64,000 nt of DNA, from NCBI GenBank assembly GCA_951406725.2, contig OX597832.1, positions 18,600,001-18,664,000 on the forward strand, read 5' to 3'. The translations under genes and the position numbers were made by a program. A model generated the notes under the pieces. The model was given only the letters and a program-made list of their open reading frames with translations, did no database searches and had not been told where the DNA came from. Below, piece after piece: positions 20,547 to 53,003 of this stretch. The DNA is from Octopus vulgaris (taxonomy: Eukaryota). Position 1 is the first letter of the stretch; each line of letters starts with the position of its first letter.

Positions 20547-21214
20547 ATACCTATTTTTTTATTACCCGCAAGGGGCTAAACATATAGGGGACAAACAAGG
20601 ACAGACATAGATATTAAGTCGATTACATCGATCCCAGTGCGTAACTGGTACTTAATTTGTAAGGCGGCGAGCTGGCAGAAACGTTAGCACGCCGGGCGAA
20701 ATGTTTAATGGTATTTCGTCTGCGGTTAGGTTGTGAGTTCAAATTCCGCCGAGGTCGACTTTGCCTTTCATCCTTTCGGGGTCGATAAATTAAGTACCAG
20801 TTACGCACTGGGGTCGATGTAATCGACTTAATCCGTTTGTCTGTCCTTGTTTGTCCTCTCTGTGTTTAGCCCCTTGTGGGTAGTAAAGAAATAGGTCCTT
20901 AATTTATCGACCCCGAAAGGATGAAAGGCAAAGTCGACTTCGGCGGAATTTGAACTCAGAACGTAACGGCAGACGAAATACCTATTTCTTTATTACCCAC
21001 AAGGGGCTAAACACAGAGGGGACAAACAAGGACAGACATAGGTATTAAGTCGATTACATCGACCCCAGCGCGTAACTGGTACTTAATTTATCCACCCCGA
21101 AAGGATGAAAGGCAAAGTCGACCTCGGCGGAATTTGAACTTAGAACGTAACGGCTGACGAAATACCGCAAAGCATTTCGCCCAGCGTGCTAACGATTCTG
21201 CCAGCTCACCGCCT
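20547..21214 (-). mobile_element. SINE family A with duplicated body, interrupted by an opposite-strand copy
   Basis: Head at about 21214, two body units; sequence resumes at about 20894 after the insert. Confidence 0.9.
20661..20895 (+). mobile_element. SINE family A inserted into another family A copy
   Basis: Full head and body; imperfect TSD GGTACTTAATTT (20648-20659) / GGTCCTTAATTT (20894-20905). Confidence 0.9.
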
Positions 21215-28804: not shown

Positions 28805-29102
28805 TACACACAAACATATGGAAAGAGAAAGATAGATAGTTATGTAGGTGGATATATAGAATATATACAGGAACACTAGCTAGTGTTCCATGAGGAAATG
28901 TTATTTGTTGAGCAGCTATATGTATTTGGAACGTTTTTCAGAGGTTTATAAACAAACCTAACATTGAAAGGCATGTTGGAACCTCAACATAAAGCAGATT
29001 CGATTATGATTGTATACGTGGAGTTGTAAACGTAACACTAGTTGTCGTACCTCTATCTGTATAGACACAATTTCCATTAAAGGCGCCAAGAAAGGCGCCA
29101 GA

Positions 29103-29393
29103 CTCTTAGGACCGACTGACCCGTGCTCAAACGCCGTTTGCACGGAACCATTCTCCACTTCGATCTTCGAAGGTTTCGTTCGAATATTTGCTACTACCAC
29201 CGAGATCTGCACCTGCGATCGGCTTCACCCGGGCTCATGCCCGCGGCTTCCATGCACACCACGACGCCCTCCTACTCGACCGGGTATCGGAAAGTCGCCT
29301 CGCCTCCGATCGTGCAACTTGTCACCCGGCCAGTCCGGCATCGGTCGCTCGCTCAAGCGCCATCCGTTTTCGGGGCTGGTCGATTCGACAGGT
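29103..29393 (-). pseudogene. Isolated 28S rRNA fragment (~290 bp)
   Basis: Plus strand CTTAGGACCGACTGACCC, GAATATTTGCTACTACCACC.AGATCTGCAC, CCCTCCTACTCG, AGCGCCATCC.TTTTC.GGGCT.GT.GATTCG are reverse complements of conserved eukaryotic LSU blocks; sharp GC rise; no flanking rDNA. Confidence 0.92.
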
Positions 29394-52677: not shown

Positions 52678-52715
<38 letters not shown>

Positions 52716-52721
<6 letters not shown>

Positions 52722-52904
52722 ATAGAAGGAGCTTCTACAGGACTAGGACTGTTTCATTCAAATGAAATCATCAGGAAGCTCGTAAATCATTTGAATGAAA
52801 CAGTTCTAGTCCTGTAGAAGCTCCTTCTATAAAATAAATTAATTTACTCTGCCATGTATTGAGTACCTTATTTACTGTTGTTAACCCCGACTCAACCCGG
52901 GACC

Positions 52905-52907
<3 letters not shown>
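52716..52907. mobile_element. Mini-element in (TA)n with a 50-bp inverted repeat carrying the hammerhead
   Basis: Arms 52716-52765 / 52787-52836 with one mismatch; (TA)n on both sides. Confidence 0.8.
52729..52781 (-). ncRNA. Type I hammerhead ribozyme, intact core
   Basis: Minus strand GAGCUUC-CUGAUGA-UUUCAUUUGAAU-GAA-ACAG-UCCUAGUC-CUGU-A-GAAGCUC: 7-bp stem I, 4-bp stem III, GUA triplet; U.U at the first stem II position. Confidence 0.85.

Positions 52908-53003
<96 letters not shown>

Follow-up and report, generated by a model that had tools for sequence, protein, structure and literature searches.

The hairpin at positions 52716-52907 of the window, by which we mean the whole stretch of 64,000 nucleotides of Octopus vulgaris DNA that was analyzed, raises the question why a hammerhead ribozyme (HHR) motif should lie inside an almost perfect inverted repeat. 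The initial annotation had supposed a young insertion whose long hairpin would probably silence the ribozyme or generate double-stranded RNA. Here we arrive at another answer. To judge from its sequence, the unit is a stub, without a promoter, that a Penelope-like element (PLE) of the Hydra clade left in a (TA)n microsatellite; the feature is real, and the locus is ordinary debris of a known kind of element. The unit and its flanks consist of the following parts, with positions within the element counted, here and throughout, from C3 of the HHR (C3 = 0).

52682-52715, no strand: (TA)n target microsatellite, left flank.
52716-52781, minus: inverted arm (-7 to +58), a copy of the element RNA from the putative cap to the inner (short) reverse transcription start at TATAAAATA.
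52747, minus: single mismatch between the arms (+27, loop III), at a site that also differs among subfamilies.
52780, minus: A at -6, where stem I begins; putative transcription start, with TATAAAT 29 nt before it in parent copies.
52781, minus: non-parental G at -7, a putative cap-templated nucleotide, which gives stem I its 7th pair.
52782-52786, plus: junction filler of 5 nt between the arms, private to this copy.
52787-52836, plus: direct arm (+9 to +58), the 3' part of the HHR without CUGAUGA.
52837-52907, plus: tail (+59 to +129), which the inverted arm does not have; in parents it runs on into the 5' UTR and the ORF.
52908-52960, no strand: (TA)n target microsatellite, right flank.

The 192-bp unit is flanked on both sides by (TA)n tracts, and its arms do form the near-perfect inverted repeat that had been described: between 52716-52765 and 52787-52836, 49 of the 50 positions pair and one (52747/52805) does not, and the spacer measures 21 nt. 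This spacer has one match in the 2.8 Gb genome and is therefore a private junction; the same single occurrence led us to reject the idea that it is upstream sequence of the parent. The window copy is a variant stub, in that its direct arm begins at +9 after the 5-nt filler. Because CUGAUGA is absent from this arm, its plus strand contains no complete ribozyme motif. Two other features of the window were noted in passing: perfect 41-bp inverted arms, 103 nt apart and outside a microsatellite (20754-20938), which look like a common short repeat, and a minus-strand fragment of eukaryotic LSU rRNA (28955-29198, 55.7 bits).

On the minus strand, 52781-52729 carries the 53-nt HHR motif proposed in the initial annotation, which is of type I: the core (CUGANGA, GAA and NUH) and stems I-III are all present, and the predicted cut lies between 52736 and 52735. 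Since Rfam lists no hammerhead family here, neither at the gathering score nor at E values up to 10, the assignment rests on the motif anatomy, as follows.

52781-52775 with 52735-52729, minus: stem I, 7 bp.
52774-52768, minus: CUGAUGA.
52767-52756, minus: stem II region, with U.U, 3 bp and a tetraloop.
52755-52753, minus: GAA.
52752-52749 with 52740-52737, minus: stem III, 4 bp, then GUA.

The G10.1-C11.1 pair is absent, and U.U stands at the base of stem II in 27 of 27 promoter-bearing haplotypes. Thus, the first stem II pair, which had been regarded as a lesion in need of repair, is a family-wide character. Most changes in the recurrent promoter-bearing haplotypes affect N7, loop II or loop III; one lies in stem II, and there are a few indels (variable sites were judged by inspection, the automatic count being inflated by ungapped indels). 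This concentration suggests that the fold may be under selection in the parent. The core alone folds with an MFE of -12.1 (z -2.1) into a structure that is not the catalytic one, an HHR-like fold scoring -9.6. For the full hairpin the MFE is -78.7 kcal/mol when the minus strand is folded and -81.3 for the plus strand, with z about -18; none of 200 shuffles did as well. In silico, the probability of stem I is about zero in the full minus-strand transcript, which agrees with the earlier expectation that the hairpin would out-compete the HHR in read-through RNA.

The inverted layout is not special to this locus. Firstly, the 27-nt end of the tail has 1,883 exact matches genome-wide and the perfectly palindromic centre has 354, the fuller palindrome being the typical copy. 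Secondly, in a sample made up of the first 100 tail matches (contig C1; the tail pattern misses the subfamily to which most of the promoter-bearing copies belong), 60 are short head-to-head stubs; 82 had been flagged, including microsatellite matches, from which those with outer ends at +55 to +66 were retained and one (L168) was removed by hand. The inverted arm of these stubs ends at +58 to +65, at TA repeats, and their direct arm extends to +129. The core is kept on both arms in 26 of the 60, and some copies have the tail on both arms (L203, L205 and L213). The inversion is therefore an ordinary insertion footprint. Thirdly, of 597 candidates for the whole unit, inversion included, the top 40 that were scored are 94-100% identical, and they comprise 39 other full-length matches at 94-95%. 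The youth ascribed to the insertion is hence a property of the family, of which the inversion is the norm, and not the mark of a one-off event. Longer head-to-head copies with other junction points, some of them on short palindromes, were also seen (L073, L151, L154 and L177), as were two identical insertions with identical flanks lying 8 kb apart, a local duplication (L140 and L141; G000:C1:57300331 and 57308469).

The junctions of the stubs differ from copy to copy. The stubs also mirror several parent subfamilies and therefore arose repeatedly. Furthermore, the two arms share the +11 variant in 45 of 45 informative stubs (hand count), which means that both arms of a stub derive from one RNA or one source. 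The stubs do not include the TATA region, and the window stub has no promoter of its own, so that they would be dead ends.

At the family level the inverted layout is not an assembly artefact: in short-read contigs of another run the inverted arm is joined at the same base (24 loose ends). The window locus itself is bridged by no short-read contig. As to expression, one run that we guess to be RNA contains sequence of the family only (a weak indication), and no locus-specific RNA was seen at the window stub, the depth over the unique flank being 0 in that run.

The parent can be recognized because the same HHR and tail flank ORFs of 587-722 aa in five of six fetched loci, the sixth copy being without such a long frame. 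These ORFs, with up to 722 open codons, contain YRDDG, CxCX5C and GIY-YIG motifs, as read by eye; Pfam returned no RT, GIY-YIG or other relevant family for either PLE protein. The HHR/tail repeats are inverted in four parent loci (L127, L129, L130 and L131) and direct in one (L128). In the latter the tail continues as ATAT and then reaches the ORF start, which identifies the tail as 5' UTR. The endonuclease part of the parent has 20,990 first-look candidates in the genome. Two traits of endonuclease-bearing (EN+) PLEs are found, namely an RT linked to a C-terminal GIY-YIG in one ORF, and an inverted 5'-truncated copy beside a direct copy with a tail at one end, as in the window and the 60 sampled stubs. 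The placement within the Hydra clade was made by comparing protein motifs with the clade definition in the accessible part of PMC8557442: RWK and DKT correspond to IRWR and DKTKN in L128, the CxCX5C linker to CNCPDKTTC, and the CxxC/CxH arrangement around E and N to CDLC..E..N..CMH, CCHH being absent (by eye). The preference for (TA)n is seen in the 3' flanks, which are of TA/CA type in 88 of the 100 sampled copies.

Several further arrangements were encountered among the fetched loci. A truncated parent (L092:848-5570) has inverted repeats at both ends; some 300 bp of its flank recur on the far side, followed by one more short inverted arm, indicating a nested or duplicated insertion. Another locus (L096:7383-8999, minus) contains an open frame of 539 codons, which we take to resemble a non-LTR RT of another family. 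At G000:C8:91475367-91483204 (L220-L232) the same PLE family forms a palindromic array in which about 27 units, each about 271 bp long, follow one another in tandem; every unit has the TATA region, the HHR, the tail and the ORF start, so that the array is retrozyme-like with the promoter kept.

The inner ends of the stubs pile up at a fixed point. The deepest reach of either arm falls at -8 to -5 in 39 of the 60 stubs (it is shorter in 14 and longer in 7), and the point of the pile-up, -6, is where stem I begins. TATAAAT or CATAAAT starts 29 nt before -6 in all but one of 12 promoter-bearing arms, the distance being 30 nt in the remaining one; 15 of 22 positions of the intervening spacer vary between subfamilies, while TATAAAT is kept. 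This spacing, together with a pyrimidine at -7 and a purine at -6, is what we would expect of a TATA box and an initiator.

In addition, many inner ends carry one base that the parents do not have. G stands at -7 in 17 of 27 junction arms and in 0 of 19 parental arms (Fisher p 6e-6). For about 6 of these 17 cases the opposite arm is an equally readable source of the G; in the hand-pruned set G is present in 11 of 18 (p 0.001 vs 25%). Genome-wide there are 971 arms with G at -7, and the promoter is kept in none of them. Conversely, a pattern that allows A, G or T at -7 (C being outside it) finds 2,673 promoter-bearing arms, and among the 100 matches listed -7 is T in 98 and A in 2. G-ended arms also abut unrelated DNA, such as (TA)n (L236), host flank (L239) or ORF (L258); others lie at the 5' end of a copy that has an ORF (L203) or at tandem joints within a copy (L213 and L216), and one short-read contig of another run keeps the G at a joint. 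The next base out is G as well in 16 of 30 G-ended arms, mostly in an ambiguous opposite-arm context. We consider it likely that -6 is the transcription start and that the G at -7 was copied from the m7G cap. In L1/SVA insertions, a single G that no template accounts for at the 5' end is described in the available text of PMC3287187 as a mark of cap reverse transcription. Two other sources of the G were considered. A parent subfamily with G at -7 was rejected, there being 0 matches in the genome and 0 among 157 promoter-bearing arms in the fetched loci (overlaps counted twice). A spliced 5' exon, suggested by the acceptor-like AG at -6/-5 and by the D. virilis intron that ends at helix I, is not favoured because no sequence beyond the G is shared. 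As far as our literature searches reached, with subscription papers and bioRxiv supplements outside that reach, no cap or start-site reading of PLE stubs is described, and the pile-up at -6 with its extra G is new. As a separate observation, L215/L216 (G000:C7:106788893-106789069), L204 and L213 contain short repeats in head-to-tail order, which run on for 20-120 nt beyond the tail and then begin anew at -7 to -4; they resemble template jumps from the RNA start.

The best overall explanation, and in our judgement a probable one, is that each stub consists of two short cDNAs, copied to the likely capped first base and joined head to head in (TA)n. The enzyme of the element would prime them from the two nicked strands of the target. 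Reverse transcription likely begins at two TA-like sites able to pair with the target, at +58 to +65 and at +129. Both cDNAs would copy the sense RNA to its likely capped first base (-6), gaining the cap-templated G, and since both would run to the cap, they must join at their 3' ends. We somewhat favour end-joining with deletions and fillers for this last step; the perfect centres might arise when the joining proceeds by annealing at AGCT.

The alternative that survives best assigns the fixed boundary to the HHR fold rather than to a transcription start: the fold would end the cDNA, whose nascent end, once the 5' strand of stem I has been copied, would snap back on its own 3'-strand copy, detach from the RNA and gain one templated base as the apparent G, stem I setting the position. 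It accounts for a boundary at the exact edge of stem I and for a G that lengthens this stem by one pair, and 2-3 of 50 listed junctions do extend further along the template, continuing as the 3' stem I sequence would. Most of the unambiguous G-ended arms, however, go no further than a single base, which is followed by A or T (14 of 30), and the long copies, that is, the promoter-bearing arms counted above, read freely through stem I. Nor does the snap-back explain why TATAAAT lies at 29 nt and is kept across subfamilies despite the variable spacer. We therefore regard it as unlikely.

Less likely still is that a single cDNA folds back at an AGCT micro-palindrome, or that an antisense RNA primes itself, as the palindromes at inverted junctions of rotifer PLEs are read in the accessible part of PMC3846280; the varied junctions would then be later damage to the hairpin tip. 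In favour of this route, the 354 perfect centres lie around AGCT and the arms always share subfamily variants; identical arms are equally compatible with fold-back self-priming and with twin priming. Against it, junctions with both arms intact to the G at -7 and 1-6 nt between them are found at 85 loci, compared with 10 distinct loci for the parental-base control. Such double-G junctions are not easily self-primed, although the second G is often ambiguous and can in many of them be read as a templated duplication, and they suggest two cDNAs joined head to head rather than the published antisense self-priming. Moreover, a G foreign to the parents at the 5' end of the sense strand is what a capped sense template would leave, and the inverted arm has a fixed outer end of its own.

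The third alternative is a self-propagating non-autonomous palindromic element (MITE-, SINE- or retrozyme-like) spread from a few master copies. The stereotyped length of about 195 bp and hundreds of near-identical copies give it some appeal. It is nevertheless very improbable: the stubs are without the TATA region, mirror several parent subfamilies and vary at their junctions; no terminal inverted repeat bounds the whole unit, the repeat being internal with the 71-nt tail outside it, as would not be expected of a MITE; and the window unit is a single inverted pair, as the 60 stubs likewise are not tandem HHR monomers of the kind that define non-LTR retrozymes. The remaining view, a young locus-specific inversion acting as a ribozyme-silencing switch or as a source of double-stranded or small RNA, is the least credible of all, since the loss of stem I in silico and the family sequence in the presumed RNA run are outweighed by an inversion that is the family norm, a stub without a promoter of its own and a unique flank at depth 0.

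On our explanation the hairpin is a by-product, not a regulatory device. As for the HHR of the parent, a start at -6 would make it the opening 51 nt of the mRNA, and cleavage, should it occur, would cut off a 45-nt leader together with the cap. The RNA was presumably mostly uncleaved when copied, because the stubs span the predicted cut site intact. A cluster of indels at +39 to +42, just 3' of the predicted cut, which affects 12 of 118 stub arms and accounts for 16 of 22 events (p 6e-9), and in which one or both of the G bases at +39 and +42 are lost, was examined as a possible scar of in vivo cleavage and set aside as probable assembly error: it is found in 0 of 24 matching non-stub arms, no such deletions are listed at a 1% share in the contigs assembled from short reads of four runs, and comparable losses are seen in an array with evident errors (L225 and L226). 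Metazoan PLE hammerheads are described, in the literature at hand, as weakly active in vitro. A larger picture can be offered tentatively, and we hold it to be possible rather than probable: the stubs would record twin priming on sense, capped RNA, and the HHR would be a self-decapping switch between uncleaved, capped RNA that serves as template and cleaved RNA that is destroyed or translated cap-free. For the latter there is a precedent in RNA viruses, whose translation can be made independent of the cap by HHR cleavage within a 5' UTR according to the accessible part of PMC13725137, which provides a concrete rival to simple decay of the cleaved PLE RNA.

Among known systems, the closest is Hydra-1_Obim (Craig et al. 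2021, PMC8557442), and the combination of an inverted truncated copy, a tail and a (TA)n target is already published there for Hydra-clade PLEs. In the available parts of that paper the likeness extends to a single ORF with RT followed by GIY-YIG, RWR in place of RWK, DKT, CxCX5C and CxxC/CxH around E and N, as well as to an HHR in the repeat, the (TA)n target and an inverted 5'-truncated copy with a tail. By inspection the octopus family is distinct, since its HHR and protein differ, and its tail is about 70 nt long rather than 30-40 nt. Those parts describe no transcription start and no cap-ended stubs. Penelope of Adineta vaga (PMC3846280, in part) likewise has head-to-head inverted pLTRs, a junction palindrome and a tail on one arm; antisense self-priming was inferred there, whereas in the octopus the presence of a non-parental 5' G on both arms speaks for a template that is sense and capped.

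With regard to the enzyme, the portion of Frangieh et al. (2024, PMC11167929) at hand reports that a PLE protein nicks and extends both strands, and that two internal start sites define the tail. This system, Poseidon PAc of Anolis, therefore resembles our proposal in its two tail-defining RT starts, in the nicking and extension of both strands and in having uncleaved RNA as its main substrate. It belongs to another clade, however, and its starts are located within the ORF and share no homology with the target; those of the octopus lie in the 5' UTR at TA-like stretches.

As to the ribozyme, Cervera and de la Pena (2014, PMC4209133, in part) had already noted opposite-strand HHR pairs 100-700 bp apart. 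The PLE hammerheads described there share with ours the type I HHR in the pLTR and the palindromic loop III; they have a minimal helix where the octopus has a 4-bp stem III with an 8-nt loop, and the octopus HHR differs further in being without the G10.1-C11.1 pair and in having a stem I that begins at the putative RNA start. The D. virilis Penelope promoter is reported as TATA-less and internal, with a start well upstream of the HHR (PMC2377424 and PMC4209133, both in part), so the octopus layout, with a TATA box and a putative start at the HHR, does not hold for PLEs at large. Animal non-LTR retrozymes (Li, Clavereau and Pollet 2026, 10.64898/2026.07.22.740005; PMC7229834; accessible parts) are also non-coding, PLE-derived and equipped with a type I HHR. 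They are tandem monomers bounded by cleavage sites, whereas the octopus unit is an inverted pair bounded by a putative start.

Finally, the single untemplated G of L1/SVA (PMC3287187, in part) is found at the 5' end of copies that reach the start; in the octopus PLE it is found at the inner ends of stubs. If our reading is correct, the cap mark on hundreds of stubs would settle that the template is sense, capped RNA, would pin down the transcription start to the nucleotide with no other source than DNA, and would place the ribozyme where its cleavage removes the cap. Both the origin of the head-to-head repeats of PLEs and the role of their hammerhead are stated as open in the accessible parts of PMC8557442 and PMC3846280, and the family-level boundary with its extra G makes these two questions testable.
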